64,000 nucleotides of DNA, taken from IMG/VR virus record IMGVR_UViG_3300042323_000705, positions 9,779-73,778 of that record. One strand, written 5' to 3'. The notes under the pieces are model-generated. The model made no database searches. It saw only the letters and a program-made list of their open reading frames with translations, and was not told where the DNA came from. The DNA is from a virus. Of the stretch, positions 1-64,000 are shown piece by piece (position 1 is the first letter of the stretch; each line of letters begins with the position of its first letter). A program made the position numbers and the translations under genes.

Positions 1-531
1 GGTGCTCAAGCAGGAGGAGGGTTCTTTAGTAGTCTCTTCTCAGGTATCCAAGGTTTCTTTGGAAACTTATTTGGTGGTATTGGTAACCTTTTCTCTGGCT
101 TGTTTGGTAGTGGTGGCCTTGGTGGGTTATTTAGCCTATTTAGTGGTGGTAGCTTATTTGGTGGTTTTGCTACTGGCGGTTTTGTTTCAGGACCAGGAAC
201 AGCTACTTCAGATTCTATTATGGCTATGCTATCCAATGGTGAGTATGTAGTAAATGCTGCTACAACTAAACGTTGGTTGCCTTTCCTTGAAACACTAAAT
301 GCTAACAAAGGTCGTCTACCAGCTTTTGCTAATGGTGGACTAGTTGGACCGAGCAATCCTAGTGCTTTTAAAACACTACAAGAAAATAATAACAATAAGG
401 ACAAACAACAAGTGTTCAACATTAATGTTTCAGGTGATGTCTCCATGCAAACTCGTAAAGAGATTGCCCGTATGATTCCGGAGATCACTGCTGGGGTCAA
501 TATGACTAATCGCGAGAGAGGATCACGATAA
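1..531 (+). CDS. Tail tape measure protein, C-terminal part (5' truncated by window)
   Basis: Frame 1 is open from base 1. Gly/Phe-rich repeats, then FATGGFVSGPGTATSDSIMAMLSNGEYVVNA, typical of tape measure C-termini; followed by tail-tip genes. Confidence 0.85.
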   Translation, partial: GAQAGGGFFSSLFSGIQGFFGNLFGGIGNLFSGLFGSGGLGGLFSLFSGGSLFGGFATGGFVSGPGTATSDSIMAMLSNGEYVVNAATTKRWLPFLETLNANKGRLPAFANGGLVGPSNPSAFKTLQENNNNKDKQQVFNINVSGDVSMQTRKEIARMIPEITAGVNMTNRERGSR

Positions 532-1136
532 TGACAGTTTATTATTTTGAGGGGAGCCCAATTGTGGCTCCTCTTACTATTGAATCTAATGAACCTGTAT
601 TTGTTGCAGATACAGTAAATCTTAAACAACAAAGGGCATCGCAAGGTGCCCAACGTTGGGAACTAAGCTTTCAAATTCAAACTAAAGATATAGAAGAAGA
701 TTACTTTGTTGGTATGGTAACAGGTATCAAAGATGCTAAGACTATGATTATGCCTCAGTTGCTTTCAGTTGATAAAAAAGTAACTGTAACTACTAACGGT
801 TCGGCTAGTGCTACTTCTGCAGGAGCTGACTCTGTTCTTATTAATTTTTCTCAAGCATCTAGACTTTTACCTAAAGGGTCTTTTATTAAATTTGCTAGTC
901 ATAGTAAAATTTATACAGTTACTGCAAACGTAACTACTCAAACAACTGTTGTTTCTGTGCCTATTTATCCATCTTTACGTCAAAGTATTTCTAGCTCAAC
1001 TGTAGTTCACCATCCAGGCTCAACTACAAAACCTGTTTTACAATACTACCGCGATTTAGAAACACTGCAAGGCATTATTTATGAAGACGGTGTACTTGTA
1101 AATCCTGGAACTATTAAGCTATTAGAGGCATTTTAA
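531..1136 (+). CDS. Putative distal tail protein
   Basis: 201 aa directly after the tape measure gene (TAATG overlap); QRWELSF motif; call rests on synteny. Confidence 0.6.
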   Translation: MTVYYFEGSPIVAPLTIESNEPVFVADTVNLKQQRASQGAQRWELSFQIQTKDIEEDYFVGMVTGIKDAKTMIMPQLLSVDKKVTVTTNGSASATSAGADSVLINFSQASRLLPKGSFIKFASHSKIYTVTANVTTQTTVVSVPIYPSLRQSISSSTVVHHPGSTTKPVLQYYRDLETLQGIIYEDGVLVNPGTIKLLEAF

Positions 1137-29886: not shown

Positions 29887-32067
29887 TTAACAGAAGCAAA
29901 AATCAGACTCAAGAACTTTCTTGATATCAAGATTTCCCCGTTTAGGTAACATTGAAGCACAACCTAACTGAGTTAGAACGTGCTTTAGTGGATCAGCTTC
30001 GTATAGCTCTACAAACTTTTCACGAACTAAAGTAAAAAGTTTTCCCATAGAGCCAGCAGTAGTACCCCAAGAGTCGTGGATAGCAGCTACATCAAAGCTA
30101 GCAGCATGCACTACCATAGACATGTGCACAGCATCAAGACTGTGAACAATGTTTGGAGAGGCACCGAGTTTCTGGGAGTCTTTGTCTAGAGTAGACTCTT
30201 CCCAGTTTTCAACTACAACATGAAAACGAGCATCACCATAAGATAACCAAGTACGGTTACTTGTTGGTTGACGATAGTTTTGAACTACAGGGAAGTTAGT
30301 CACAGGTGACTTCCAAGCCATGTACTCATGTTTTTCATTATACTGGTCAGCAACTTGCTCGAACAACTTTAGAAGCCCACCGGGACCTTTTAAGTCTTCA
30401 TAACAAGCAGCATGTAACTCACGACCTAGCATAGACGCCCAGAGTTTTTCTTGACGACCAAGATACTCATTGATAGTGCGAGTATCATCCCAGACTTGTT
30501 GACCCATACCATAAGGTACAGCTCCATAGGCTGAAGTCATTGTAGGACGTTTGGTAATCTTTCGTCGAACTTTTAAGTCTTTGATACGATTCCAATAGAC
30601 GGGATAAAGAGCTTCTCGTAGTTTACGATTATTGTTTCTCCAGGTTTGAACTGAAGTATAGGCCAATGCTTTCCGTTCGGATCCAGCTGGTGCTTCATCA
30701 TACTCCTTTTGCAGACGCTCTGCTTCTTCAAGAACGTAGTCTAGTTGATTATAAATCACGCTAGGGATACGCATTTCTAGTTCTTCAAGTCGTTTCCAAA
30801 CTTTCTCAGCTACAAGAGCATACAGATCTCCTGGAACTTCACTAGGTACTAGGTTCACATAAGGGGCTAGCTCTTCATCTTTTGACATTGCTGTAAGATG
30901 CTGAGAACCATTGTTTGAACCGTCAATAAACAGAGGTAAGTGAGAAACAAACAACTCTTGTTCGTTACCTGCTTCACACCAAGTTTGTAGCAACTTCAGT
31001 TCCATGCAGAAAGCTAAGAAACTGAAGGGCTTATCTGCTTTCATCCAGCCAGTGTTCTGAGTAGGATCACTAGCATAAGACAGAAACAAGTCATAGTTCT
31101 GAAGGCAAAACTCTGCTCGGTCATCAAGAGAGCACTTGTCATTACCCCAAGTATTAGAACCATGAATCAGCATCCAATACAGACCCTCCTCACCAATAGG
31201 TTGCCCATTAGCAAAGAGTAAAAGAGACTTAGCGTTATCACTAGACTGCTCATGAAGGAAAGCAGTGTTAGGATACAGTCGGCCTCGAAAATCTGTATTG
31301 TAAAGATGGTAGAACACCTTGTCGATATTCTTTTTAGCTAATCGCTGAATAGAACTCAACTCGATGTAAAGACTCTCTTTTTTCTCGAAGTCCTTTTCTT
31401 GTTTGTATTTTAGAGGGTTTCCTTCCTCAGGTGCTTCCATGTAATACTCAATAACATCCAGAAGAGGCTTGTTGATTATCCAAGGAGTTGACCCGAGTTT
31501 GTTTAGAACATCAAATAACATCTGATGCTCTTCTTTGTTGATCTTACTAGTAATCTCAGGGCTAGACTTCTTGATGATAGAGTAGCCAAGAGGATGCATA
31601 GGTCCTGTCCAAGGTTCAGGAGGAGTATTGACTGGGAAAAGATCAATCTCTTCTTCAGTGTTTAACTCCTCCCAAAGCTCGAACAAGGCTTTCTTGTTTT
31701 TAACGCTAACAGTATAAGTAAGGTACTTAGAACGACGACCCTTCTTATCTGTCTTAACTAGTTTGTACTCTAAAAGGCCAATCTCAAAGAATGAGACTAG
31801 CACAAAGAAGCCAACATGGCAAGCTGCAGTACTGTTACGAGACAACCTTAGTTTTTGTCGTACTCTACGGCCTAGGGTAACTGCCAGATCAACCAACGTA
31901 GCTTTCCGCTCAACACCCTTAATGATGTGACCAAACGAGAACAAAATAATTCTACGTGCGTCTTCATCTTTAAGAAAGTGGGTGTATTGGTTTCTGTCAG
32001 CCCTAAGAGTAGCTTTACGAAAATTAAAATCGTCAATAAGTGCTTTTAAAATAGAGTTTTCTGACAA
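29887..32067 (-). CDS. T7-like single-subunit RNA polymerase (726 aa, short N-terminal domain)
   Basis: DFRGRLY, motif A DGSNNGSQH, motif B RKITKRPTMTSAYG, PNIVHSLDA, motif C IHDSW; TTG start with GAGG RBS. Confidence 0.96.
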   Translation of the reverse strand: MSENSILKALIDDFNFRKATLRADRNQYTHFLKDEDARRIILFSFGHIIKGVERKATLVDLAVTLGRRVRQKLRLSRNSTAACHVGFFVLVSFFEIGLLEYKLVKTDKKGRRSKYLTYTVSVKNKKALFELWEELNTEEEIDLFPVNTPPEPWTGPMHPLGYSIIKKSSPEITSKINKEEHQMLFDVLNKLGSTPWIINKPLLDVIEYYMEAPEEGNPLKYKQEKDFEKKESLYIELSSIQRLAKKNIDKVFYHLYNTDFRGRLYPNTAFLHEQSSDNAKSLLLFANGQPIGEEGLYWMLIHGSNTWGNDKCSLDDRAEFCLQNYDLFLSYASDPTQNTGWMKADKPFSFLAFCMELKLLQTWCEAGNEQELFVSHLPLFIDGSNNGSQHLTAMSKDEELAPYVNLVPSEVPGDLYALVAEKVWKRLEELEMRIPSVIYNQLDYVLEEAERLQKEYDEAPAGSERKALAYTSVQTWRNNNRKLREALYPVYWNRIKDLKVRRKITKRPTMTSAYGAVPYGMGQQVWDDTRTINEYLGRQEKLWASMLGRELHAACYEDLKGPGGLLKLFEQVADQYNEKHEYMAWKSPVTNFPVVQNYRQPTSNRTWLSYGDARFHVVVENWEESTLDKDSQKLGASPNIVHSLDAVHMSMVVHAASFDVAAIHDSWGTTAGSMGKLFTLVREKFVELYEADPLKHVLTQLGCASMLPKRGNLDIKKVLESDFCFC

Positions 32068-49453: not shown

Positions 49454-51025
49454 ATGACCCAGATACCAACTCTTACTTCGAAGTCTAGTGTTGGCACTCC
49501 AACTTACGAATATGAATCTATGGTTCGTATCTGGAAACGTTGCCGCGCTATTCTAAACGGAGAGCTTTATGCTAAAGAGCATGACCGTTATCTCGATCAA
49601 GTTAACTACACTAACCTACTAGTACCTTTTAGTCCTCGTATGTCAGCAGAACAGTATCGCTGGTACGTAGCTGAAGCAGAACTACCCGGTTTAACTTCAC
49701 AGTATGCAAAGATTCTTACAGGTGGTTTGCTTCGTAAGCCACCAGAAATTATGCTACCTGAAACAGTACCTGAAGAAGCTGCCTCTTGGCTACGTAACCG
49801 CTTTACGGAAGATGGTCGTCCAATTATTGCTTTTCTTGATGCTGCTATTTGGGAAGAGCTATCGACTTCACGTGGTTGGGTTTCTGTAGACTTTCCTATG
49901 GTTCCTAACTACACTGATTTAGATCCTGAACAAAAACAAATGATTGCGCCTTATCCAGTTCTTTGGAGAGCTGAGGACGTTATTAACTGGCAAACAGGTA
50001 TTGATAAATCCACTGGTCGTCCAACTCTTACTCGTATTGTTTTCCGTTACATTGGCAGAACTTATAGAGACTCTGAGTGGCATCCTAACTTAGACATTGT
50101 TGCTGCGGATCATTATCTTGATGAAGAAGGTATTTACAGAGTACAATACTACAAAAAAGAAGGTGAAGCTACAGTAGACCTGATTAACGGTGACATTAAA
50201 ATGACTCAGCTCTTTGGTACTGAGCTGTTTAGTAATGACCACTGGATTGCAGACGGTGAACCTTTAACTCCAATGATGTGGGGTGAGCCAATGACACAGC
50301 TCCCTATTTTCCCATTAAATGGTGAAGTTACCCTCGAAGCTCCAATGCTAACTCCTCTTATTGACAAAGAAATTGCTCTTTACAACAAAATCTCTCGTCG
50401 TAATCATCTTCTTTATGGTGCAGCTACTTTTACTCCTGTAGTGTTTTCAGACATGAGCAACGAAGACTTTCAACAAGTAGTTAATGCTGGTTTAGGCTCC
50501 TGGATTAAATTAGGCTCACAAGACAAAATTGATGCTTTTAAAACTCCAACGGATGCTTTGTCAGATATGGATCGTGCAATTGAAGGTGCCTTAGCTGAAA
50601 TGTCTCGTTTCGGTACTCAGATTCTAGCACCAGACGCAAGAACTGGAGACTCTGGTATTGCGCTTGAAATTAGAAACTCTAGCATCACAGCTCAGCTAGG
50701 ACTTCTTAACAACAAGCTCTCTGCTACTATGGCAGAAGTTCTTAAGCTAATGATTAGATGGCGTTATGGAAAAGATGTAGAAGTTGAAGATCTTAAATTC
50801 AAACTATCAGCAGACTTTAACCCAACACCTCTTGGTTCTGAATGGACTCGTCTAGTAACTGAATGGTATCAGAATCGTTTGATTCCTCGTTCTGTATGGC
50901 TTTCTGTAGCTAAGCAGCATGATATTATTCCTAATGATTATGATGATGTAGCAGGTATGGAAGAGATCGGCCAAGATCCTCTGATTCAAGATAACTCTGG
51001 CATGGACATAGAGGACAATATATAA
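49454..51025 (+). CDS. Portal protein (DUF4055-like)
   Basis: 523 aa; LLRKPP, PYPVLWRAEDVINW, PLIDKEIALY, DSGIALEIR, LSADF pattern; head-gene context. Confidence 0.82.
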   Translation: MTQIPTLTSKSSVGTPTYEYESMVRIWKRCRAILNGELYAKEHDRYLDQVNYTNLLVPFSPRMSAEQYRWYVAEAELPGLTSQYAKILTGGLLRKPPEIMLPETVPEEAASWLRNRFTEDGRPIIAFLDAAIWEELSTSRGWVSVDFPMVPNYTDLDPEQKQMIAPYPVLWRAEDVINWQTGIDKSTGRPTLTRIVFRYIGRTYRDSEWHPNLDIVAADHYLDEEGIYRVQYYKKEGEATVDLINGDIKMTQLFGTELFSNDHWIADGEPLTPMMWGEPMTQLPIFPLNGEVTLEAPMLTPLIDKEIALYNKISRRNHLLYGAATFTPVVFSDMSNEDFQQVVNAGLGSWIKLGSQDKIDAFKTPTDALSDMDRAIEGALAEMSRFGTQILAPDARTGDSGIALEIRNSSITAQLGLLNNKLSATMAEVLKLMIRWRYGKDVEVEDLKFKLSADFNPTPLGSEWTRLVTEWYQNRLIPRSVWLSVAKQHDIIPNDYDDVAGMEEIGQDPLIQDNSGMDIEDNI

Positions 51026-51365: not shown

Positions 51366-51429
51366 CTCTCCTCAATGAAGGACCCCAACAACACAACCCA
51401 GCTGAGGCTCGGTTAGAGGAGACACACAC

Positions 51430-51867
51430 ATGGCACGCAGTAAAATTACTTCTGCTTCCCAAGATCTTATCTCTGATAATGGAGCAGTCTTAGCAAGTAT
51501 TGTTGACGGAGAACAGATTCAATTAGATGTAACACTAAACTGGCTAACCAATCTTACAGGTTATCAGATGAAAGTTACTGTCATTGAAGCTCAAAATACT
51601 GGTGATGGTAAGATTCCTACGGCTGTGCAGCCTAGTGGAGTTATTACTCAGCTACCTATTTTAGATTCTCTCGTAACCGATAATACTTTCAAGATTGTTT
51701 TCCCAGAGAACTTGATTGCTACTTGGAACGTACAACCTTCCCCTGACAAACCTGTTTATGGTTATATCGAACTAGAAGTAAAAGACACAGGAACAGGGAA
51801 TCTACAACAAATTTGGAAACCTCTCAGAGGACTAGTAGAAGTCTTATATTCTCCAACGGAGTTCTAA
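51430..51867 (+). CDS. Putative virion adaptor protein
   Basis: 145 aa, beta-rich, GAGGAG RBS, precedes fibre genes. Confidence 0.55.
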   Translation: MARSKITSASQDLISDNGAVLASIVDGEQIQLDVTLNWLTNLTGYQMKVTVIEAQNTGDGKIPTAVQPSGVITQLPILDSLVTDNTFKIVFPENLIATWNVQPSPDKPVYGYIELEVKDTGTGNLQQIWKPLRGLVEVLYSPTEF

Positions 51868-51868
51868 G

Positions 51869-52351
51869 ATGACATACAAACTAAGCACTAAAGGCAATAA
51901 GTTAGAACTTTCTCTAACTAAAAACGAACTTGTTACAGAAGTAGACAAGCTAGAATACACAGTTTCTCTTGCTAGGACAGGAGGGCAGGGTTCTAAAGGC
52001 GATACTATTAGTAATGTTTATGTTGATGCTAACCAACACCTTATTGTACAAACGGTTAACTCTGCAGGAGTAACCACTACAATCGATGCAGGTGATGTTG
52101 AAGCTGAAATCAACTTAGACCATCTTGAAGATGTTATTTTTAACAACTTACAAAATGCTGACTACATCGCTTACGACTTACCTACTCAAACCTTTAGAAA
52201 CTACCAGCTAACAACTTCTCGTATGGTAGATGTAAACAATGACGATAGAACTGACGGTTCTCTTCTTGTGTTTAAAGAAACTGATAACAAGTATGTTGCA
52301 ACAAACGTACTTAATAATCCAAATACTATCATTACTGGGGGTAACTTCTAA
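51869..52351 (+). CDS. Putative virion fibre-associated protein
   Basis: GGQGSKGD collagen-like stretch, LEDV/MVDV repeats. Confidence 0.55.
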   Translation: MTYKLSTKGNKLELSLTKNELVTEVDKLEYTVSLARTGGQGSKGDTISNVYVDANQHLIVQTVNSAGVTTTIDAGDVEAEINLDHLEDVIFNNLQNADYIAYDLPTQTFRNYQLTTSRMVDVNNDDRTDGSLLVFKETDNKYVATNVLNNPNTIITGGNF

Positions 52352-53445
52352 TGGCAACTAAAATTCTTCTTAAAAAATCTAGTACAGCAGGTGCTGTGCC
52401 GCTAACAACCGATCTTGAAATTGGTGAAGTAGCACTTAACCTTGCTGACCGTAAACTTTATTCTAAAAACAATTCTAACATTGTAGTACCCATTGGTTCT
52501 GCTTATGTTGGTGGTACTGCTCCTACTGCTCCTGCTGAAGGTGACCTTTGGTACGATTCTGCTAACGATTTGTTAAAAGCTTACAACGGTACTGCTTGGG
52601 CAGCTGCAGGCTACACCTCTCTCACCCAGTTCGGTGTTAATGCTAGTGCTGCAGAGCTAAACATCCTTGACGGCGCTACCCTAACTACTACTGAGCTAAA
52701 TTATGTAGACGGTGTTACCTCTGCTATTCAAACGCAGTTAGACGGCAAATCTTCTACCTCTCATAACCACACTGTTGACTCTCTTTCAAACGTCCTTGTT
52801 ATTGACAACTCTGATAACGAAGTACTAGCTTGGGACTCTACAAGCTCTAAGTGGATTAACCAAACAGCAGCAGAAGCTGGTCTTGCCACTTCAACTCACA
52901 ACCACACTCTAGACTCTCTTTCTAACGTTACGATCACATCAAATGCTAGTGGTGAGATCTTAAAGTGGAATGGTACTGCTTGGATTAACAACACTCTTGC
53001 AGAAGCAGGTATTCAACCAGCTGGCTCTTATTTAACTGCTGAAGTCGATACTCTTGCTACCGTAACAGGTCGTGGTGCAACCACTTCAACTGCTATTTCT
53101 ATTGCTAATGCTACAAGTTCTACTGGAACTACTAGTGGTGCTTTAACTGTAGCTGGTGGTGTAGGCATCGTAGAAAACCTTAACGTTGGTGGTAATGCTA
53201 TTATCACAGGCAACTTGACTGTTAATGGTACAACTACTACTGTAAACTCAAACACTGTTAACATTGGCGACAACATCATTGTTCTTAACGCAGACGAAAC
53301 AGGAGCAGCCAGTCAAAATGCTGGTTTTGAAGTAGAGCGTGGCACTGATACAAACGTACAGTTTATTTGGAATGAAGCTAACGATGCTTGGGACATGGGT
53401 GACTATCCACTACAAAACGTAAAGCTTGACGGCGGTACTTACTAA
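52351..53445 (+). CDS. Fibre-like virion protein
   Basis: Tandem HNHT.DSLSNV...WIN.T.AEAG repeats; GNLTVNGTTTTVN; ERGTDTN. Confidence 0.7.
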   Translation: MATKILLKKSSTAGAVPLTTDLEIGEVALNLADRKLYSKNNSNIVVPIGSAYVGGTAPTAPAEGDLWYDSANDLLKAYNGTAWAAAGYTSLTQFGVNASAAELNILDGATLTTTELNYVDGVTSAIQTQLDGKSSTSHNHTVDSLSNVLVIDNSDNEVLAWDSTSSKWINQTAAEAGLATSTHNHTLDSLSNVTITSNASGEILKWNGTAWINNTLAEAGIQPAGSYLTAEVDTLATVTGRGATTSTAISIANATSSTGTTSGALTVAGGVGIVENLNVGGNAIITGNLTVNGTTTTVNSNTVNIGDNIIVLNADETGAASQNAGFEVERGTDTNVQFIWNEANDAWDMGDYPLQNVKLDGGTY

Positions 53446-53467
53446 GACATAGAAAGGTCTCATCTAT

Positions 53468-54922
53468 ATGGCGACTAAAATTATTCACAAGAAGTCTAGC
53501 GTTGCTGAAAAAGTACCGCTAACGACTGATCTTGAAGTTGGCGAGCTTGCTATCAACCTTGTCGACAAAAAACTATTCTCAAAAGATGGCAACGGTAACA
53601 TCATCGAGTTCGGCTCTGTAGAAGTACAGCAGTTAACTGTATACAACGGTACTGGCGCTACAATTACTAAAGGCTCTGTTGTTTATATCAACGGAGCACA
53701 AGGACAAAGACCAAGTATTGCGCTTGCTAGCAACTCTTCTGAAGCTACTTCCAGCAAGACTATTGGTTTTGTTGTTGCAGACATTCTCAATGGAGCAGAA
53801 GGAACAGTAACCACAGAAGGTTTAGTTTACAACCTAAATACTCTTGGTTTAACTGAAGGGGGTCCTGTTTACTTAGGATCAACAGCAGGGTCTATTACTC
53901 AGACTAAGCCTGTTGCTCCTGCTCACTTAGTTTCTCTTGGTTGGGTAGTTAAGGCTAATGCTAGCTCAGGCCGTATTCTTGCTCATGTGCAGAATGGTTT
54001 TGAGTTAAATGAAATTCATGATGTCCTTATCTCTAGCCCTACTAATGGCCAAGTTTTAGCTTATGAAACTTCTTCAGGTCTTTGGAAGAATACCACAAGT
54101 CAAAGTACTGCAAGCTCATATGCAACTGGAAAAGTAACGCTATCAACAACTACTGCAGATCAAATTATAGATAGCTTTTTAGTTACAGCAGTAAAAACTA
54201 CAAAATATTATGTAGAAGCAACAACAGCAAGCTCATATCATGCTACAGAAATTTTATTAATACAGGATGGTACTGCTTGTTACGTAACTGAATATGCAAC
54301 TATTTACTCAGGATCAAGCCTTATTTCCTTTAATGCAAATATTAGCGGAGGAAATGTTAGACTACTTGCAACTCCGGTAAACACAAATACTACAGTAACC
54401 TTTGCAAGAATTGATGTACTTGAAGGTGGTGCTGTAGGGGGAACTATTCCAACAGCTAGTACAACTGTTCTTGGTGGTGTTAAAGTTGACGGAACTACTA
54501 TTGCAATTAGTAACGGCATTATTTCTTCGGTAGGTGGTGGAGGCTCAAGCAGCTTTTCTAACCAGTATTCCCTGACAGGTACTACAACAAATTCTACTGA
54601 AACAGAACTGCTTATTGACGGTTTAACTCGAATTCCTGTAGCAACAAATAAAGCTATAAGCTATTTAGTAACTATTGCTGCTCGGAGAACAGATACTCCT
54701 GGTGATTATGCTATGTTTGAACTTAAAGGGGTAGCAGCAAATAGTAGCGGAGTAGTAACTGATGTTGGATCTGCTTATGAAATTATTGTAGCAAGAACAA
54801 ATACGGGATATTTAGTTGATGCTAGAGCTGATGATACAAACAATTCCATAAATATTTACGTAACAGGAGTGACTGGTCATACGATTAGTTGGAAAGCTTC
54901 AGTTCAGGTAATAGAGGTTTAA
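53468..54922 (+). CDS. Fibre-like virion protein
   Basis: N-terminus paralogous to 52351 (MATKI..KKSS....PLTTDLE.GE.A.NL.D.KL.SK). Confidence 0.7.
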   Translation: MATKIIHKKSSVAEKVPLTTDLEVGELAINLVDKKLFSKDGNGNIIEFGSVEVQQLTVYNGTGATITKGSVVYINGAQGQRPSIALASNSSEATSSKTIGFVVADILNGAEGTVTTEGLVYNLNTLGLTEGGPVYLGSTAGSITQTKPVAPAHLVSLGWVVKANASSGRILAHVQNGFELNEIHDVLISSPTNGQVLAYETSSGLWKNTTSQSTASSYATGKVTLSTTTADQIIDSFLVTAVKTTKYYVEATTASSYHATEILLIQDGTACYVTEYATIYSGSSLISFNANISGGNVRLLATPVNTNTTVTFARIDVLEGGAVGGTIPTASTTVLGGVKVDGTTIAISNGIISSVGGGGSSSFSNQYSLTGTTTNSTETELLIDGLTRIPVATNKAISYLVTIAARRTDTPGDYAMFELKGVAANSSGVVTDVGSAYEIIVARTNTGYLVDARADDTNNSINIYVTGVTGHTISWKASVQVIEV

Positions 54923-55407
54923 CAATGGCAAGAAGAACTCGTAAATTTCTTTTAGATAATACTACCGGAACAGCTTATACAAATATTAACAATGTTACAG
55001 GCGCACCTCTTTCAAGCGTAGCCGCTGGTATCAAACCTAAAACTTCTAGAATTGCCTTATCTGCAGCTGGGCGACCAGTTGTAAAACTTACAGGCAATAA
55101 AGCTGTATTTACTCGAGCAGCAAATTTAATATCTCAAATTTATTTAGAAGTTACTGATGCAAGAGGCGCAAGAACTGCAATAGCTGCACCAGCAGGTGGC
55201 TCAATTGACATTAATTTAAGAAAAGTTGACTCATCAAATGTTTCATCAACTTTAGGAACATACTCAATTACAAGCGGAAATACTTCTAGTACATATGCTA
55301 CAGCACTTAACATACTAAACACTGATACTGTGTTTATTGATATTACTGGTATAGGAACTATACGTCCTGGTACAGGGCTAAACGTTGTAATAACCTTTTA
55401 CGGATAA
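54889..55407 (+). CDS. Hypothetical virion protein
   Basis: Likely start at MARRTRK. Confidence 0.55.
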   Translation: MESFSSGNRGLTMARRTRKFLLDNTTGTAYTNINNVTGAPLSSVAAGIKPKTSRIALSAAGRPVVKLTGNKAVFTRAANLISQIYLEVTDARGARTAIAAPAGGSIDINLRKVDSSNVSSTLGTYSITSGNTSSTYATALNILNTDTVFIDITGIGTIRPGTGLNVVITFYG

Positions 55408-55412
55408 ATAAA

Positions 55413-55613
55413 ATGACAAAAGAAGAAATAATGAACCAGTTTCAGGGAAACAACGAAACAGCACCGACTGTATACGTTTTTAATGGAAGTTTAAGTGAAC
55501 TCGAACAAGTAGCTGCAACAAGTATTAAAACATTTGGTGTACAAGGTATTTTATATTTTATGTCACTTGATCCTGAGTATACTCCAGTAGACTCAAGAAT
55601 GGAGATTTTATAA
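55413..55613 (+). CDS. Hypothetical protein
   Basis: 66 aa. Confidence 0.55.
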   Translation: MTKEEIMNQFQGNNETAPTVYVFNGSLSELEQVAATSIKTFGVQGILYFMSLDPEYTPVDSRMEIL

Positions 55614-55614
55614 C

Positions 55615-56715
55615 ATGTACGCAAAATTAGTAACAAGCGGTGCTGCAGTTATACCATCACGCCTAATTAGAGATATTGTGGCTCTATGTACTTCTGCAAC
55701 TCCATCTTTAGCTAACCTAAGTGGTAGTGGATTTAGTAACACATCAAGTGTTATTGTAGACAATACTCCAGCAGGATGGACATATGTTCATAGTAGTTTA
55801 GATGGAGCTGCTTTAGGAAGTGGCTCAGTCCCAGCGGCAACATCATACCAGTGGTGGGCTATGAAGTCTCCATGTCTTGCCCCAGCTGGAAAAGAAAAGT
55901 TTGCTGTTATAAACATGACATACAGTGATACTACTACATATGGAGGATTTTGGTTAGCAGGTGCTTCAAACGTAGTAACTACTACAATTACAAATAGAGG
56001 TTCGCATGGATATGCGACTACTGATGCGTTTGCAACAGCATTGATAAGCGATGCTCAGAATGCCTTTAGTAACGCTGCAAACCAAACCTTTCACCTTATT
56101 GCAACTCCAAGATTTGTATTGATAGTAAGAGAAGGTCTAAAGTACCATGGTGTATTTGAACATAGTGCATCAGAATTACACGAGTTTTATAGTACAGCAC
56201 CATTTTGTCAACTTAATATCGGAGCAAATACTTATGGTCCGGGATCTTCTGGCCCAGGCACACTTGGAGGAATTCAAATAAACGGTACAGTTTCAGTTGC
56301 TGGAGCTGGAAATACTCATACTTTTGAAACATTCAACTTTACTGACCCTAATACTAATATAAACTACGGTGTTCTAAGTTTTGGAGGCCCAAGCGAAGGC
56401 GGCATCGCCGCGGCTGCTTCTTTAGCACAACAACCTTTTATCTGGTCATCTAGAATGTCAGCAACATTATCGGCAACTGGGGCTACAAGAAATATTGTGA
56501 AGCCAATGTTGTTCCAAGGATTCGGTTATGGACTACCAACTTGTTGGATCACCGGCATCAGTGATGTTTGGTTTACACGAGGCAGTGCTGGTACAACCGG
56601 AGACACTATGATCATTAATGGTGATACTTATACCTACTTCAATGCAATTTCTTCTGCACAAGCCTCTGGTAATAAAACTGCCGGATTTGTGGTGAACACA
56701 GGACAGACGGCATAA
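55615..56715 (+). CDS. Putative virion structural protein
   Basis: 366 aa, Ser/Thr/Gly-rich, ending GDTMIINGDTYTYF. Confidence 0.6.
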   Translation: MYAKLVTSGAAVIPSRLIRDIVALCTSATPSLANLSGSGFSNTSSVIVDNTPAGWTYVHSSLDGAALGSGSVPAATSYQWWAMKSPCLAPAGKEKFAVINMTYSDTTTYGGFWLAGASNVVTTTITNRGSHGYATTDAFATALISDAQNAFSNAANQTFHLIATPRFVLIVREGLKYHGVFEHSASELHEFYSTAPFCQLNIGANTYGPGSSGPGTLGGIQINGTVSVAGAGNTHTFETFNFTDPNTNINYGVLSFGGPSEGGIAAAASLAQQPFIWSSRMSATLSATGATRNIVKPMLFQGFGYGLPTCWITGISDVWFTRGSAGTTGDTMIINGDTYTYFNAISSAQASGNKTAGFVVNTGQTA

Positions 56716-56717
56716 AA

Positions 56718-56882
56718 ATGGCAGAAATAGTAGAAACACCTATACAGTCTGAACTAGACTTTTTCGCAGATATAATAGAGTATGACAGGTTTGCACCAAT
56801 GACTCTTGGATTTGTATACGATGGGTTAATTGACTATAATATCATTAGACCCGCAAATGGCGTTCAAATCGTAGAAAATTAA
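56718..56882 (+). CDS. Small hypothetical protein (54 aa)
   Basis: Hand-translated MAEIVETPIQSELDFFADII...; fills the gap. Confidence 0.5.
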   Translation: MAEIVETPIQSELDFFADIIEYDRFAPMTLGFVYDGLIDYNIIRPANGVQIVEN

Positions 56883-56922
56883 AAATTTTTAAAAACAACA
56901 ACACCACAAGGGAGATTGAACT

Positions 56923-59223
56923 GTGGCAGACAAAGACTTTATAGTTAAAAATGGACTAATAGTTGGTAATGGTAATCTTGGCGTTGGAACGACTACCCCT
57001 GCAGTCAAGACAGAAATCTCCGGCAATACCTCTACCGCCTGCATCTTTTCGTCCACGATAACGGGAACCACGATGGACGTGACCGCAGTCACCAGCGGTA
57101 CTTTGGCTGTCGGGCAGTATGTGAACTCATCAACTGGTCGAGTCCGCATCACCGCGCTTGGCACTGGAACGGGCGGTGTTGGAACCTACATCTTAGATAC
57201 CGATCTAACGGGGACTTTTGGTATCAACAGAAGCTATGTCACTGAGCCGATAACGACACGTCTGGGAAACTCGACAACTTCTTTCGACCGAAGCATCCCT
57301 TTTGGTGTGATTGAATTTGGCGGTGCTATCACTAATATTGGCCCCAGAGGCTATATCCAGACGATATCGTCAATCAATGGGACATCTACCGGATCTATGA
57401 TGTTTGGTGTTGGCACTGGAAACGCAACAGCGCCGCCCAGAACAGCTTTAAACCTCCTTCAGACTAACGCCCAGTTCTCGGGGAATCTATCTATCGGCGT
57501 TTCGTCTCTGTCACCGCGAAACCTAACGATTTTCCCAGCTACCCTGTTCCTCGGCGGTCGCTCCCAGACTATCTTCACGTCCGGGAACAACCTCTCCACC
57601 CTGTTCTTTGCTTCCAGCTACATTGACGGCGGCGTAGAGACACCCACCATTACCTACGGCCAACTTGGCTACCGCGTGGACAGTTCGATCACCTCGGGCC
57701 AACTCCCGACGAACTTCTACATCCAGACCCGCAATGCCTCCGGCACCACTGCTGACCGCTTCACCATCGACAAGGATGGCAGTGTAGGTATTGGGACAAC
57801 TGCTCCTTTGCATGATCCAAACTCCGGTCCTGTGATTGAAATAAAAGGTACAGCAACAAATAGAATTGGTGGTTTAGTTCTTAGGTCATCAGATAACACA
57901 GTTGACGCTAGATTTAGAGCTTGGAACGGTCAAGTTTTTATTGGCGCAGAATCATCTAACGATTTGATACTGAGAACAAATGGTGCTGATCGCATAACGA
58001 TTAAGTCTTCTGATGGATACGTCGGCATTGGCACAGCCACACCGTTCTATAGGTTAGACGTTTCGGGAGACGTGAGGCTTGGCGGCTCTGTCGGTGTCCT
58101 CAAGGACCCCGGGAGCTTCAGCCTCGACGTCTTTGGGTACGTAAACGCTGACGGTCTGGCTATCGGCGGCACGGCGATCACCGCTACCGCTGCAGAGCTG
58201 AACTTCGTTGATGGTGTCACTTCCGCCATCCAGACGCAGCTTGATGCTAAAGCCCCTCTGGCTTCCCCCGCACTCACGGGCACCCCTACGGCTCCGACTG
58301 CTGCTGTAGGCACTAACACTACGCAGATTGCTACTACAGCTTATGTCAATGCTGAGATCGCGAATGACGCCCCGACCAAGACTGGCGGAGGTGCTTCTGG
58401 CTCTTGGGGTATTGACGTAACGGGTAACGCTGCTACAGCTACAGCTTTAGCTTCTGGTGGGGCTGATCGTATTAAGCTCGATGGTATCGCTAGCGGAGCT
58501 AATAACTACACCCTGCCTGCCGCTACTTCCACTGCTCTTGGTGGTGTAGAACTCTTTTCAGATACAGTGCAGTCTGTTGCAGCTAACGCTGTTTCAGCAA
58601 CTGCTAGCAGAACCTATGGAGTTCAAGTTAACTCTGCAGGTCAAGCTGTTGTTAACGTTCCTTGGGTTGACACAGATACTACCACAGATGCTACTAAGCT
58701 ACCTCTAGCAGGTGGTACTATGACTGGTGCAATTACCTTTGCAGCTGGTCAAACTTGGCCTACCTTTAACCAAAACACTACAGGTACAGCTACTACTGCT
58801 ACAACAGCAAACGCACTTAACACTGCAAACAACTACCAAGTAAATAGTCTTGGTGTTGGTACTGCAGCTTCTGGCACTGCTGGTGAAATTAGAGCTACTA
58901 ACAACGTTACAGCCTATTACTCTGATGACAGGCTTAAAACTAAGCTAGGTGTAATTGATAACGCTCTAGAAAAAGTCTTGTCTTTGTCTGGCTTTTACTA
59001 TGAAGCAAACTCAGTAGCGCAAGCTCTTGGGTATGAAGTAAAACAAGAAGTAGGTGTTTCTGCTCAAGAAGTACAAGCTGTTATGCCTGAAGTAGTTGCT
59101 CCAGCTCCTATTGACGAGCGTTACTTGACTGTTCGTTATGAACGTCTTGTACCCTTGTTAATCGAGGCTATCAAAGAACAACAACAACAAATTAACGAGC
59201 TAAAAGCTAAGCTAGGAGAATAA
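56923..59223 (+). CDS. Tail fibre/spike with C-terminal intramolecular chaperone (peptidase S74)
   Basis: Repeated G.VGIGT..P; SDDRLK...GVSAQEVQAVMPEVV...VRYERLVPLLIEAIKEQ. Confidence 0.88.
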   Translation: MADKDFIVKNGLIVGNGNLGVGTTTPAVKTEISGNTSTACIFSSTITGTTMDVTAVTSGTLAVGQYVNSSTGRVRITALGTGTGGVGTYILDTDLTGTFGINRSYVTEPITTRLGNSTTSFDRSIPFGVIEFGGAITNIGPRGYIQTISSINGTSTGSMMFGVGTGNATAPPRTALNLLQTNAQFSGNLSIGVSSLSPRNLTIFPATLFLGGRSQTIFTSGNNLSTLFFASSYIDGGVETPTITYGQLGYRVDSSITSGQLPTNFYIQTRNASGTTADRFTIDKDGSVGIGTTAPLHDPNSGPVIEIKGTATNRIGGLVLRSSDNTVDARFRAWNGQVFIGAESSNDLILRTNGADRITIKSSDGYVGIGTATPFYRLDVSGDVRLGGSVGVLKDPGSFSLDVFGYVNADGLAIGGTAITATAAELNFVDGVTSAIQTQLDAKAPLASPALTGTPTAPTAAVGTNTTQIATTAYVNAEIANDAPTKTGGGASGSWGIDVTGNAATATALASGGADRIKLDGIASGANNYTLPAATSTALGGVELFSDTVQSVAANAVSATASRTYGVQVNSAGQAVVNVPWVDTDTTTDATKLPLAGGTMTGAITFAAGQTWPTFNQNTTGTATTATTANALNTANNYQVNSLGVGTAASGTAGEIRATNNVTAYYSDDRLKTKLGVIDNALEKVLSLSGFYYEANSVAQALGYEVKQEVGVSAQEVQAVMPEVVAPAPIDERYLTVRYERLVPLLIEAIKEQQQQINELKAKLGE

Positions 59224-59224
59224 C

Positions 59225-60031
59225 ATGGTTTTACCTACAGGACAAATTTCTATGTCTCAGGTTAACACTGAGTTAAGCTTAGCTACTACTACTACTATTA
59301 GCCTAAACCAAACAAACGTTAGAACTCTTGCTGGTGTAGCTTCAGGAGCAATTAGTATGAACAACTTAAGAGGTAAGTCTGCTGGTGTAGATAAATCTGC
59401 AACTACTTGGAGCAGAATTATTTTAACAACTGCAACTAGTGCAACTTACCCTGCAGGTATACGTGCTGGTGATGCTGTTTTTATTTTACATCATCAGATT
59501 TTCAATGCGCCTGCTCCAAACGCAACCCTATTTTCAACAATACCAGGTACAGCGGTAGTGAAAAGGCAATTTATGGCTTTTAGCCCTCAAATTAACAGAT
59601 TTGTACATTCTCAACAGTCTATAAACTTTTTACCTGGAACTAATACCCTTAGTGGTACTAGCATAGCAGCCGCTAACAATCGTATTGTTGTATTTCGTCG
59701 TAGTCCAGATTATTTTCAAGATCCTACTATCGCTTTTCTTGGCACAGAAGTTTCTACAGCAGCATACCCGTCACAAGCGGTTGCGTACACTGGAAGTCCT
59801 TCCGTTATCCTAGGTCTAGCCAGCACAAGTAGATCTAACCTTTCTTCTAACACGATGACAACAACAATAGGTGGGGTTACTCCTACTCTTGACTCGTTTG
59901 CAGCTAGTACTGTTGATGTAGTGCGTTTATTCTATCGTTTAAATATTACTCCTGCTTCTCTAACAACTGCTGCGACTGTTAACTTTACTGGTACTACTAT
60001 GTCTGGTTATCGCCCATTTGTTATCCATTAA
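59225..60031 (+). CDS. Fibre-associated / adhesin-like protein
   Basis: MVLPTGQISMSQVNTEL...GAISMNNLRGKS N-terminus, common after S74 fibres. Confidence 0.6.
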   Translation: MVLPTGQISMSQVNTELSLATTTTISLNQTNVRTLAGVASGAISMNNLRGKSAGVDKSATTWSRIILTTATSATYPAGIRAGDAVFILHHQIFNAPAPNATLFSTIPGTAVVKRQFMAFSPQINRFVHSQQSINFLPGTNTLSGTSIAAANNRIVVFRRSPDYFQDPTIAFLGTEVSTAAYPSQAVAYTGSPSVILGLASTSRSNLSSNTMTTTIGGVTPTLDSFAASTVDVVRLFYRLNITPASLTTAATVNFTGTTMSGYRPFVIH

Positions 60032-60045
60032 TAAAAAGGAAAATT

Positions 60046-60393
60046 ATGAATACTTATACATGGAAAATCTTATCTCTCGAAGTTACTCCTCAAGAAAACT
60101 CGCTAGTAAATGTTGTAAAAGGAGTAAACTATAAAATAGTAGCTGTTTCAGAAGATAACCTTACCTCTGAAGTGTTACTTTGGGCAACACTTAACTCACC
60201 CACAGAAAGTTTTACAAACTATGAAGAACTTACAGAAGAACAAATAATTTCTTGGATAAAAAATTATTTGCTAAGTTTTGATGTTGAAATGATAGGAGAT
60301 ATCGATTTAGTAAAACAAGTATATAACAGTCTTGATCATAAAATTAATTTTATTCGTGAGAATTCTCTATTACAAAAACCTTTACCTTGGTAA
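60046..60393 (+). CDS. Hypothetical protein (paralogue of 60628)
   Basis: YTWKI...YEELTEEQIISW...LPW. Confidence 0.65.
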   Translation: MNTYTWKILSLEVTPQENSLVNVVKGVNYKIVAVSEDNLTSEVLLWATLNSPTESFTNYEELTEEQIISWIKNYLLSFDVEMIGDIDLVKQVYNSLDHKINFIRENSLLQKPLPW

Positions 60394-60635
60394 AACAACA
60401 ATATATTATGAAAAGGATTAAAAAGATGGAAAAGAAACAACCACAAACCATCACTATTAATAACGTAGAGTACACTGAAGACCAGCTTACTGATCAACAA
60501 AAAGTTATCATTAACCATGTAGCTGACCTAGATCGTAAAATCGGCTCTACGCAGTTTAACTTAGACCAGCTGCAAGTAGGCCGTGAAGCTTTCATGAAAA
60601 TGCTTACAGAATCTTTGGAAAAGAAAAATGACTGA
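60387..60635 (+). CDS. Hypothetical coiled-coil protein
   Basis: ITINNVEY...DLDRKI...LDQLQVGREAF; real start probably MEKKQP. Confidence 0.65.
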   Translation: MVKQQYIMKRIKKMEKKQPQTITINNVEYTEDQLTDQQKVIINHVADLDRKIGSTQFNLDQLQVGREAFMKMLTESLEKKND

Positions 60636-60927
60636 TATCGTTTGGACAATTGAGCATCTAGAGCGTAATGCTATTAATGACGGTGTAACTGTTGCTCATT
60701 GGCGAGCTACAGCTACTGAAGGAGAGTATTCCTCTGCTACTTACGGAGCTAAAGGATTTAGCCCTCAACCTGATTCTTCTGACTTTACACCTTTTTCTGA
60801 ACTTACTCAAGAGCAAGTTTTAGGCTGGGTTTGGCGTACAGTAAATAAAGAAGAGACTGAAAAAGCTTTAACACTAGATATTGAACATAAGAAAAATCCA
60901 ATTACACTAACGGGCTTACCTTGGTAA
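60628..60927 (+). CDS. Hypothetical protein (paralogue of 60046)
   Basis: VWTIEHLE...FSELTQEQVLGW...GLPW. Confidence 0.65.
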   Translation: MTDIVWTIEHLERNAINDGVTVAHWRATATEGEYSSATYGAKGFSPQPDSSDFTPFSELTQEQVLGWVWRTVNKEETEKALTLDIEHKKNPITLTGLPW

Positions 60928-60942
60928 AGCTTAGGAGGTAAA

Positions 60943-63900
60943 ATGAGTCTAACCCAAGAATTATTTGACAGACAAATTGAGCACTTGCTCACAATTAGAC
61001 GTTATCAAGATGCTGCAAACTTACTTATCGATAAAGCTTCTAACCGTCACCGTGGCTTTCTAAAGAAAATTCTTGGAAAAGACTTAAGAGATCGGCTAGC
61101 ACTAGAGCGTGAGGTTACAAGGCATGTCCAAGAGCTTCACGCACTAGGCTCTAATGCTGTTTCTGACTTTATCGGAGCAGAGTTAGACTTCCAAACTAAC
61201 AACCTTAGACGCTCTGTTGGTGACTTTTATAGCGTAAACTCGGTTAACCGCGGACAACTTGCTAGAGAGATCACTAGCCAACCTCTCAAACTCTTTAACG
61301 AGAACAAGTCTCACCCTACTATGGTAAAGAGTTTTGAGAACGTAGGTGGTGCAGAGCTAACACGTATTAATCTTACAATTCGTAGAGGCATCGCTGCAGG
61401 TGAAGTCGAAGAAGATATCATCAAGAAAGTACTACAGACTACAAAACTAACTGACAACCAAGCTAAAACTCTTGTTACTACTCACATGACTCAAGCTGAC
61501 AACCTTGTCAAGCAAAAAGTACTTGAAGCAAACAAAGAAGTTTACTCTGGTTATGTCTTTACAGCTATCCTCGACTCTCGCACTAGCGAAATCTGTTCTC
61601 GTTATGACAATTTGTTCCAGTCAGCAGACAACGTAAAAGTTCGTCCTCCGTTACACTGGCGTTGCCGTTCTGTTCTTGTTCCTGTACTAAAGTCTAAGAA
61701 AGAAATCGCTCGCTCTACAAGTGACAGACTAAACAAAGAAAAGCTAGCTGCTGTAGCTGATAACACTCTTTCAGGTGCTCTACCTATCAAGGAAACCTTT
61801 AGCGAGTGGTTGATCCGTCAACCTATGGCAACAAAGTTAGACAAGTTAGGCTCAGAAGAACGAGTAGCTCTCTTCGAAAGAGGTGCTCTTGGCTTAACAG
61901 ATTTCTTTAGCAACTTAGGACGTCCTCTAGACATTAGTGCTGTACGTGTTAAGGACAACTTACTTACTTTCTTCAGTCCTGTTTCTCTTCGTGACAAAGA
62001 TCCTCAAGCTGCTTTCCTTAATGTTGCTAGACCTTTCCAAATTGTTCGTTCATCGCAAGTACAAAAAGATCTTGCTGATCTTATTGTTGCGGATACTTTA
62101 AACGGTAACTCAGCGATTAGTTTAACAGACTTTCGTGGTACTAGTATCGGTGGTAAGCGTGGTGTTCGTTCCCAAGCCAACAATGAATTTGATCCTCGCA
62201 ATCAAACCTTTGATCCTTTTACAGGAGAAGTACGTTCTACTCTTTACTACGATCCTGATTTCACGCTTCTTCGTGAACGTATTGACTATATGAAAGAGTC
62301 TAAGTTACTCGATCGTAATCAAAAACAGTTCATTGAAGACTTTACTAACAGTCTTGAAGATCGAGTGTCTGTAAACCAACAAACAGTAGTAGTAGAAAAC
62401 CTTCGTGTTCTATTTGAACGCTATCAAAAGAACCCAGAACCTTGGGAAAATTTTGTAGCTACCGTTCGAGCAGAAATGAACTTTTCTACGGTAAACGTTT
62501 CAAGGTTACTAGATCGTCGTTCACGTGCTCGCTCAGAGCTGTTCCTTGGTTTCAAGGGAGATCCTAACGAACCTGCAGTAATGATTCAGGGTCAAACACT
62601 AGCTATCTCTAAGCTACATAAAGAGAAGTTAGAATACGAACGTTATGTGAAAGACTGGGCTTCAACTGAAGGTATCAAGCTAGCTCGCAGTGTCTATTAT
62701 CGTGGTAAAGCTCCTTGGACTTCTTATTTCTTCGGTCCTAACGAAAAGCCAGAGGGTTTGTTTGAAACTCTTAAAGACAGCTTTATTAAACGCTCTATTC
62801 GCTCTATTTTTTATAAAGATGATCCTATTGGTTTTTATACTCGTTTCGGTAAAACTCCAGACAAATTTTCTAAAATTGTTAAAAAGTACTTAAAGAAGAA
62901 AGTTACTCCTGATTGGCTAACTATGTTTCTTGAAATTAAAGAAGAAGGCTTCGTTGACTTTATCACAAGAACTATCCGTGAAGAGTATCGTTCTATTGTA
63001 GACTTAGAATTCTTTTATAAGCTTAGACGCTCTTTAACCTTAGAACGTTTATTTATCCAAAAACTAACTGAACCTATCGAAGGTGACGTCACTCGTTCTA
63101 TGTCTCGTTTAATGGCGGTAATTGCGGAAGGTACTACTACAGACTATGACTCTCTAGCTATTAGCTTAGGTAAAGAGCTAAAATCTACTTGGAGTCCTAT
63201 CTACCCTATCTTCGGTTCTTCTCTTGAAGACTATCACGAGCAGGGATCAAAAATTCTTGAGTTGTTTCGTCAACAAGGGCTGATTAGAGTAAACTCTCGT
63301 GGTGTTACTCGCAGAGCTACAACAGACTTAGACACAGGTCGTGCTTCAGGTAATTGGAAAGATACTGTCTCAAGAGAAGTTCAAGTTGTTGATCCTGTTA
63401 TGCTCAAGCTACAAGACTACAATCGTCGTATTGAGTTATCTAATCGCTTAGGTGTAGACCGTCCTGAAAACAAATATTTTGTCGTTCCAGGTAAAAAGAC
63501 TTATGTAGACGCTCGTGGCCGTGATACTGGTGTTCCTGTTGTAACTCGTTCAGCTTTTTCTAAATTTGATGAAAAACAAATTGATGGCGATTTCGCCGAT
63601 ATGTTAAACCACACAATGTCTTTCCGTTATGAAGTAGACGATGAGTTTACTAGCTTTATGGATGATTTAGTTAGATTTAAAGACCAGAGAGGTAAAGCGG
63701 CTTACTATGACTCAATTAACGGCTTTCGTGAAGAAATTATCAGGCGAGGAGACCAAGGATATGGTCTTATGGAAACTATCAGGTACTATCGGGCCAATGG
63801 AAAGGCTTTCACCGTACATGCCCGTATTGACGGTCGTGGCCGCGTATATTATAATGGGTACTTAACACCTACTGGTGGTGAAGTAGTTCGTCCTTTCTTA

Positions 63901-64000
63901 AACACAGCTCATGCTGTTTCAATGACTCCTCAAGGCTTAAACCAGCTACGTATTCAAATGGCAGCTGTTATAGGTCCAGGTACTGAAGCACTTACTGATG
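60943..64000 (+). CDS. MuF (SPP1 gp7-like) head morphogenesis domain fused to a T7-family RNA polymerase; >1019 aa, 3' truncated
   Basis: AGGAGG RBS at 60933-60938; stop-free to the window end. MuF motifs TAILDSRTSEIC / PPLHWRCRS / FSEWLIRQP; RNAP motif IDGRGRVY...P.G at 63826-63876. Confidence 0.85.
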   Translation, partial: MSLTQELFDRQIEHLLTIRRYQDAANLLIDKASNRHRGFLKKILGKDLRDRLALEREVTRHVQELHALGSNAVSDFIGAELDFQTNNLRRSVGDFYSVNSVNRGQLAREITSQPLKLFNENKSHPTMVKSFENVGGAELTRINLTIRRGIAAGEVEEDIIKKVLQTTKLTDNQAKTLVTTHMTQADNLVKQKVLEANKEVYSGYVFTAILDSRTSEICSRYDNLFQSADNVKVRPPLHWRCRSVLVPVLKSKKEIARSTSDRLNKEKLAAVADNTLSGALPIKETFSEWLIRQPMATKLDKLGSEERVALFERGALGLTDFFSNLGRPLDISAVRVKDNLLTFFSPVSLRDKDPQAAFLNVARPFQIVRSSQVQKDLADLIVADTLNGNSAISLTDFRGTSIGGKRGVRSQANNEFDPRNQTFDPFTGEVRSTLYYDPDFTLLRERIDYMKESKLLDRNQKQFIEDFTNSLEDRVSVNQQTVVVENLRVLFERYQKNPEPWENFVATVRAEMNFSTVNVSRLLDRRSRARSELFLGFKGDPNEPAVMIQGQTLAISKLHKEKLEYERYVKDWASTEGIKLARSVYYRGKAPWTSYFFGPNEKPEGLFETLKDSFIKRSIRSIFYKDDPIGFYTRFGKTPDKFSKIVKKYLKKKVTPDWLTMFLEIKEEGFVDFITRTIREEYRSIVDLEFFYKLRRSLTLERLFIQKLTEPIEGDVTRSMSRLMAVIAEGTTTDYDSLAISLGKELKSTWSPIYPIFGSSLEDYHEQGSKILELFRQQGLIRVNSRGVTRRATTDLDTGRASGNWKDTVSREVQVVDPVMLKLQDYNRRIELSNRLGVDRPENKYFVVPGKKTYVDARGRDTGVPVVTRSAFSKFDEKQIDGDFADMLNHTMSFRYEVDDEFTSFMDDLVRFKDQRGKAAYYDSINGFREEIIRRGDQGYGLMETIRYYRANGKAFTVHARIDGRGRVYYNGYLTPTGGEVVRPFLNTAHAVSMTPQGLNQLRIQMAAVIGPGTEALTD

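Follow-up and report, generated by a model that had tools for sequence, protein, structure and literature searches.

The DNA analysed here, referred to as the window, is a stretch of 64,000 nucleotides (nt) from IMG/VR virus record IMGVR_UViG_3300042323_000705 (record positions 9,779 to 73,778). At its right-hand end lies an open reading frame (ORF) whose product is, with near certainty, a fusion of a MuF minor head domain (residues 1–330), a middle domain (residues ~391–540) and a T7-type RNA polymerase (RNAP; residues ~555–1507). The frame opens at the ATG at 60943 and continues for 1019 codons without a stop up to the window end at 64000, as seen in the ORF list and by direct reading; a preliminary description of this DNA, made from the letters alone, had reported the start after AGGAGG and the open frame, and on both points it stands. 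Judged against its full-length relatives, the window ORF is the front two thirds of a protein of ~1507 amino acids (aa). The parts of the gene that lie in the window are as follows.

60931..60945 (+): ribosome-binding site AGGAGGT (60931-60937) and ATG start of the MuF-RNAP gene (sequence reading, ORF list).
60943..64000 (+): MuF-RNAP fusion gene, first 1019 of ~1507 codons, cut by the contig end (ORF list; the 97% identical relative P0004 has 1507 aa).
61150..61929 (+): MuF or SPP1-gp7-type head morphogenesis domain, aa 70-329 (PF04233, phrog_241).
61366-61677 (+): Pfam core of the MuF domain, aa 142-245, including PPLHWRCRS (PF04233).
61933..62112 (+): poorly conserved linker, aa 331-390 (column conservation 0.43-0.49).
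62113..62562 (+): strongly conserved, mostly helical middle domain, aa ~391-540 (column conservation 0.65-0.74; at least 30 invariant residues).
62605..63999 (+): N-terminal part of the T7-type RNAP module, aa ~555-1019, equivalent to T7 RNAP ~41 to ~470, aa 601-720 being a variable insertion (fold model of the 97% relative).
63283..63387 (+): long arginine-rich beta-hairpin, aa 781-815 (model strands 262-275 and 282-296 of m14ed77c590eb; invariant columns).
63829..63849 (+): DxRGRxY motif (D963, G, R965, G966, R967, V, Y969), equivalent to T7 D421-Y427 (invariant in 32 relatives; profile alignment to T7 RNAP 411-465).

The head domain is recognised by Pfam family Phage_Mu_F (PF04233), which matches aa 142–245 with E 3.6e-11 and 44.2 bits against a cut-off of 29.6, and by PHROG 241, ‘head morphogenesis’, which matches aa 70–329 with E 1e-46; the MuF signature read in the preliminary description is thus borne out. 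Residues P236, H238, C241, R242 and S243 are invariant in the alignment of relatives, and the fusion gene is the sole MuF gene of the record. A complex prediction for the portal protein with MuF aa 1–340 returned a score of 0.00, which weighs neither way.

The polymerase part gives a weak match to the RNA polymerase family phrog_414 within the window (aa 953–1011, PHROGs), and the full-length 97% relative (1507 aa) carries both Phage_Mu_F and RNA_pol above their Pfam cut-offs (RNA_pol 41.9 bits). Across 32 full-length members, down to 43% identity, D963, R965, G966, R967 and Y969 are invariant, as are D1105 of motif A, K1173-x7-Y1181-G1182 of motif B and H1423-D1424 of motif C. The DxRGRxY region had been placed at D963 from the letters alone, with motifs A, B and C expected beyond 64000; none of the three occurs elsewhere in the record, and all are present in near-identical relatives. 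The family profile matches T7 RNAP in the PDB (E 2.5e-5) in three collinear blocks containing D421/R425/Y427 (D421–Y427), D537 and H811/D812 of that enzyme. The same profile gave no match to the N4 mini-vRNAP in the PDB search, and a single-sequence search of the PDB returned no polymerase match, T7 RNAP being reached by the family profile and the fold model only.

An AlphaFold (AF2) model covering aa 520–1507 of the 97% relative (predicted local distance difference test, pLDDT, 78.7; predicted template modelling score, pTM, 0.74) matches T7 RNAP with a Foldseek E of 4e-21. Model residues 37..986, corresponding to aa 556–1505, align to T7 RNAP 41..882 with a Z-score of 30.3 at an identity of only ~15%. 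Against individual structures, 8dh5_M gave Z 30.3 over 618 aligned residues (root-mean-square deviation, rmsd, 8.5) and 8dh1_L gave Z 29.9 over 502 (rmsd 3.8), while mitochondrial polymerases scored Z 25–27 and the N4 mini-vRNAP, also proposed for comparison in the preliminary description, Z 16.9 (607 aligned, rmsd 5.5). Since the alignment at Z 30.3 runs over T7 41–882, the modelled module starts near aa 555, not at ~720 as had been read from the letters, and is a full enzyme with a T7-like N-terminal domain. The arginine-rich hairpin, in which R786, G787, R790, R791, D795, T798, R800, T808, R811, E812 and V813 are invariant, would lie roughly at the place of the T7 intercalating hairpin, going by residue offset. 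Taken together, the invariant residues and the model indicate that aa ~555–1507 form a complete, catalytically competent T7-type single-subunit RNAP, and the model places it in a different lineage from the N4 virion enzyme, of which it is not a close relative.

The window and the whole 73,778-bp record end at the same base, and tblastn found no match to the catalytic part of the fusion gene elsewhere in that record. On IMG/VR locus L003, whose protein is 97% identical, the 3′ end of the record maps to L003:11058 and the 5′ end to L003:12890. Judged against that locus, 1831 bp between the two ends are missing, a stretch that in L003 contains codons 1020–1507, a 78-aa ORF, a phage promoter copy and the start of a 52-aa zinc-ribbon gene. 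If the genome were circular as it stands, the gene would be truly truncated in this phage, the ORF ending 47 codons past the join without a catalytic domain; the frame does remain open for 47 codons to a stop when the ends are joined, and CheckV gives the record a completeness of 100%. We nevertheless find such a truncation barely credible. No terminal overlap was found between the record ends, which lie 1831 bp apart on the 97% relative, and the in-frame 47-codon ‘tail’ appears because the record begins inside the 52-aa zinc-ribbon gene, which has its own start; the circular join was rejected on these grounds. In addition, a 3245-nt contig from the probable source lake-water run, covering L003:9920-12239 and 12531-12694, spans the break point and reaches beyond the end of the fusion gene. 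A stop before motifs A to C, which the preliminary description had foreseen as evidence against its proposal, therefore arises only on joining the contig ends, and the bridging contig contradicts that join. This DNA is present in many lake-water metagenomes. The gene is thus cut by assembly rather than by biology, and is whole in nature; the window has codons 1–1019 only because the assembly breaks within it. As to activity, the module could be an inactive relic kept as DNA-binding or structural head cargo, in keeping with its very divergent sequence, the empty single-sequence PDB search and modest Pfam scores of 27–42 bits. This is very improbable, however, given that the catalytic Asp, the K-x7-YG of motif B, the HD of motif C and DxRGRxY are all invariant, that the fold spans the full T7 enzyme at Z 30, and that conservation peaks in the palm and fingers region.

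Along the protein, conservation follows the domain plan: the MuF part (aa 1–330), a variable linker (331–390), the conserved middle domain (~391–540), a variable insertion (601–720) and a well-conserved polymerase from 721. The middle domain (aa 391–540) is among the most conserved parts of the fusion protein, and its AF2 model has a pLDDT of 81. For aa 330–560, Foldseek gave no solved fold below E 0.6, the best VIA-align Z was 4.7, within the noise range for helical domains, and the ESM Atlas returned no usable match for the domain. The top non-significant structural rows for the middle domain are mostly sigma-factor region 2 (Z 3.8–4.7).

The same architecture, for which the preliminary description had proposed a database search, proved to be widespread. 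A large database search returned at least 222 protein clusters with both Pfam families, mostly of 1450–1510 aa, and in a scan of IMG/VR, 573 viral stretches proved to encode relatives. A polymerase-only profile, run against 1.84 billion representative proteins, gave 218 matches, 74 of them below E 1e-30. No stand-alone form of this polymerase was seen among the listed matches, and in every full-length match listed the module is preceded by ~480–650 N-terminal residues; the shorter entries begin or end mid-profile and are therefore fragments or pieces of split genes. Phage_Mu_F was present in 10 of the 10 proteins checked, comprising seven distant full-length matches and three longer forms. The fusion is obligate, in that every full-length relative checked keeps MuF. 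Pfam also found no toxin family at the C-terminus of the fusion protein, where the polymerase lies.

One cause of split genes is visible in a 65%-identical relative (L029:3453-4313, IMGVR_UViG_3300009716_000434), in which a group I intron with an HNH gene interrupts motif B. The 836-nt insert lies between codons 1177 and 1178, scores 31.6 bits (E 6e-6) against the Rfam group I intron, which is below the gathering score, and carries a 209-aa HNH-type ORF (3681-4310). Many database entries of ~1140–1200 aa have MuF only because the gene is split by the motif-B intron. Some members are ~300–570 residues longer than the usual ~1500 aa, namely P0131 (1821 aa), P0138 (1890 aa) and P0140 (2073 aa). 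The additional sequence comes after the polymerase in P0131 and P0138; P0140 is matched by the polymerase profile in four separate stretches. No Pfam family other than Phage_Mu_F and RNA_pol was found in any of the three, whose extra residues may be further cargo.

The closest relatives in phage databases are the roseophages DSS3_VP1 and DSS3_PM1 (Naomviridae). Their orthologue, QGH74596.1 (1463 aa, Phage_Mu_F and RNA_pol), is 40% identical over aa 1–1018 and is annotated only as ‘minor head protein-like protein’. DSS3_VP1 shares the order portal, fusion, scaffold, capsid, and the second polymerase is common to both phages, with identities of 44% for the portal, 52% for the capsid, 40–44% for the polymerases, 34% for the DNA polymerase, 55–62% for NrdA/B and 42% for Dcd. 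On these comparisons we regard the phage as a freshwater relative of Naomviridae.

The wider gene neighbourhood bears on when the fusion protein would be made and what it would transcribe. The features in question are:

49454..51025 (+): portal protein; opens the late module, which the MuF-RNAP gene closes (phrog_145, E 2e-43; 44% identical to the DSS3_VP1 portal).
29887..32067 (-): stand-alone 726-aa T7-type RNAP, the likely non-virion partner (PF00940, E 4.9e-76).
18936-18957 (-): copy of a 22-23 bp T7-style phage promoter, CACCTCTTWRCNNTAAAGMAGA (alignment).
29864-29885 (-): promoter copy (alignment).
34508-34529 (+): promoter copy (alignment).
41010-41031 (-): promoter copy (alignment).
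44463-44484 (+): promoter copy, pointing into minus-strand genes (alignment).

The genes run in the order portal, tail fibres, fusion gene, scaffold, major capsid protein. Tail-fibre genes (52351-59223) and small ORFs stand between the portal and the fusion gene, and scaffold and major capsid genes are found at the start of the record; the fusion gene therefore lies in the late structural module. The fusion gene immediately follows the portal gene in most relatives; in this lineage the two are ~10 kb apart, with tail-fibre and small genes between them (51026-60942) that are apparently an inserted host-recognition module.

The 726-aa enzyme is encoded by a distinct gene, as the preliminary description had recognised in calling the fused enzyme a second T7-family polymerase, and shares 44% identity with the enzyme annotated as RNA polymerase in DSS3_VP1. 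Of six IMG/VR records of relatives with a completeness of 60% or more, five contain both polymerase genes, as do one 55% complete record and DSS3_VP1. The two enzymes resemble each other little: the best BLASTP E is 0.35, and a profile comparison over 521 columns gave E 0.015, so that by sequence they would be old, distant paralogues at most. The parallels between them from residue ~720 onward, on which the polymerase had initially been recognised, survive only in part. The shared DxRGRxY region is real, even at a pairwise E of 0.35 only, whereas the short upstream parallels fell away: DSLAISLGKELK against DLAVTLGRRVR gave a BLASTP E of 24, which is chance level, and the other two were not recovered.

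The promoter CACCTCTTWRCNNTAAAGMAGA has five matches in the window against 0.09 expected. A sixth copy, of 23 bp, is found at L003:12771-12795, in the 1831-bp stretch missing from the record and just downstream of the fusion gene. There it precedes the 52-aa zinc-ribbon, scaffold and capsid genes and is conserved in the loci of 16 relatives; the 23-bp class therefore also serves late capsid genes. No copy was found at the head of the operon of the 726-aa polymerase (34502 to 29887, minus strand) or at the head of the small-gene block that runs leftward from 48276; the contigs of close relatives end short of the region upstream of that operon. Sigma-70-like sites showed no enrichment (13 against 18.2 expected), nor did GAGA-N2-3-TCTC palindromes, and a search of 39–48.5 kb gave no convincing repeated motif or hairpin family that could serve as a second promoter class for the fused polymerase. 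The layout fits a relay in which the injected enzyme would act on the first genes and the stand-alone enzyme on the 23-bp promoters, an assignment that we infer.

The leftward small-gene block and the rightward late operon diverge from a region (48277-48366) that is without a copy of the 23-bp promoter and holds the adjacent small palindromes GAGATTTCTC (48290) and GAGATTATCTC (48305) together with a minus-strand TATAAT. It is a candidate site of the first promoter used. The region is nearly unchanged in one relative’s record, where the shared late-side flank is itself ~94% identical; the near-identity therefore says little. The promoter at 44463-44484 (+) points rightward through ~3.8 kb of minus-strand genes toward the late operon at 48367, and would, if active, make late transcription run antisense to the presumed early genes.

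These observations suggest the following chain of events. The fusion gene would be made late, along with the structural genes, and its MuF part would dock on the procapsid portal as SPP1 gp7 does, so that a small number of copies end up inside with the DNA. When the particle next infects a cell, the fusion protein would exit via the tail with the genome and transcribe the first genes without the host polymerase, these probably including the operon with the 726-aa stand-alone polymerase. The latter would then read the 23-bp promoter class before the replication genes and, in relatives, the capsid genes. Such steps have precedents: each SPP1 capsid contains 1–2 copies of gp7, which binds the portal (PMC5576092), many effector domains fused to MuF are thought to enter the host with the DNA, N4 injects a T7-family virion polymerase (both PMC5512222), and Thermus phage P23-45 has a virion polymerase that is fused to the tape measure protein and transcribes the gene of a second polymerase (PMC10770324). 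Packaging, injection and an early-gene role are inferred from the known behaviour of MuF, from the place of the gene in the late operon and from the fact that the fusion is strictly kept; on that footing we consider the full chain, a capsid-packaged and injected polymerase that starts early transcription, to be probable.

Several points weigh against it. The description of Naomviridae names no polymerase, and this record itself is without the catalytic third. The search of 39–48.5 kb yielded no separate early-promoter motif assignable to the fused enzyme, and the single clear promoter class could belong to either polymerase. A ~110-kDa polymerase together with MuF would have to cross the siphovirus tail largely unfolded and then refold, and a late-made polymerase could also be active within the cell that produces it. 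T7-type enzymes can drive genome entry and prime DNA replication, the latter being within the reach of both T7 and mitochondrial RNA polymerases, and the fusion might be packaged and injected chiefly for genome entry by transcription, or for replication priming, rather than for early mRNA. The structural and conservation evidence serves this role equally, as does the lack of a distinct early promoter set. We think it unlikely as the main task: it is compatible with early transcription, the two roles normally coinciding, and the head of the 726-aa polymerase operon (34502 to 29887, minus strand) is without a 23-bp promoter, so that something else must transcribe that operon first. Delivery itself can also be doubted. 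The polymerase might work late in the producing cell, on late genes or in packaging at the portal, or be cleaved from MuF and left behind; the place of its gene in the late module, the promoter copy that precedes the capsid genes right after it in relatives, and the poorly conserved linker at aa 331–390 as a possible cleavage site all speak for this. Yet a separate 726-aa polymerase is on hand for middle and late genes, and every full-length relative found, even at deep divergence, keeps the enzyme covalently joined to a capsid-targeting domain, which makes an enzyme that stays outside the capsid hard to explain. We judge non-delivery to be quite improbable, and a packaged, injected polymerase for the early genes remains the preferred reading.

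Among known systems, N4 (gp50; Schitoviridae) offers the nearest parallel in logic, with a T7-family single-subunit polymerase among the late genes and a second phage polymerase in the same genome. In N4 the capsid-carried polymerase is injected for the early genes, after which the second phage polymerase takes over (PMC5512222; PMC13434306). The proteins differ in build: gp50 has ~3500 aa, its own N- and C-terminal ejection and encapsidation domains and no MuF, whereas the giant architecture is absent here, the protein of ~1507 aa having Phage_Mu_F and RNA_pol as its only Pfam families and MuF as the presumed loading part. The fused polymerase is also nearer to the T7 and mitochondrial enzymes (Z 25–30) than to the N4 mini-vRNAP (Z 16.9), and its host phage is related to the long-tailed Naomviridae while N4 is a podovirus. 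As put forward in the preliminary description, the loading route would differ from that of N4; the polymerase lineage does differ.

P23-45 is likewise long-tailed, and its polymerase is joined to a virion protein that exits at infection, as is proposed here. Its virion polymerase transcribes the pre-early genes, including the gene of the second, non-virion polymerase (PMC10770324). That two-barrel enzyme is a homologue of cellular RNAPs, unrelated to the T7-type enzyme described here, and its fusion partner is the tape measure instead of a portal-associated head protein. MuF polyvalent proteins share the arrangement of an N-terminal MuF and a C-terminal cargo in one polypeptide; the cargoes known so far, most of them from temperate phages, comprise toxins and host-modifying enzymes, as against a polymerase of ~950 aa plus a middle domain. 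Two surveys of MuF proteins do not include an RNA polymerase among the cargoes (PMC5576092, PMC5512222). T7 RNAP itself shares the fold over almost the whole enzyme, DxRGRxY, the motif A Asp, the K-x7-YG of motif B and the HD of motif C. It is a free early protein made after infection, whereas the fused enzyme has ~550 extra N-terminal residues and ~15% identity to it.

To our knowledge, virion-carried RNA polymerases are known from few groups only: N4-like, crAss-like and jumbo phages, and Thermus phage P23-45. Each of these groups has taught something new about viral takeover of the cell. In the present case, mere fusion to a minor head protein appears to achieve the loading of a compact T7-type enzyme. 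Hundreds of uncultured aquatic phages share this design, as do two cultured roseophages with a tractable host, which makes it directly testable. If the proposed role holds, the fusion would add a small, host-independent system of early transcription to those known, account for the start of infection in Naomviridae-like phages, and show MuF able to carry a ~110-kDa enzyme through the tail; it would also correct the annotation of a large family labelled only ‘head morphogenesis protein’. Both Pfam domains are already tagged in databases, where the architecture can be seen. In the searchable literature we found no paper that links MuF to an RNA polymerase or interprets the architecture, in line with the impression from the preliminary description that the fusion was uncharacterised.

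A broader proposal can be made tentatively, and we rate it as rather doubtful. A T7-type RNAP tethered to MuF may represent a third independent delivery route for a transcription enzyme, shared by the whole of a large aquatic clade, the Naomviridae with deoxyuridine (dU) DNA included, perhaps since a uracil genome cannot rely on the host polymerase early; the enzyme could then read uracil promoters, and the middle domain might be a new module for portal release or promoter choice. The dU phage AR9 carries a virion polymerase that reads uracil-containing promoters. Cultured Naomviridae, DSS3_VP1 among them, have deoxyuridine DNA (PMC8323127; PMC12697855). In the window phage, a homologue (42%) of the DSS3_VP1 Dcd, the deaminase that makes dUTP for deoxyuridine DNA, is encoded at 42913-43311 (-), while no YfbR-type dTMP phosphatase (Dtm) was found in the record.

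Elsewhere in the window, near-identical GGGGGGC...GCCCCCC hairpins with T-runs on both sides are present at 39540-39558, found by the terminator scan, and at about 35745-35770. They adjoin the plus-strand ORFs 34760-35731 and 37931-39286, and look like bidirectional terminators.

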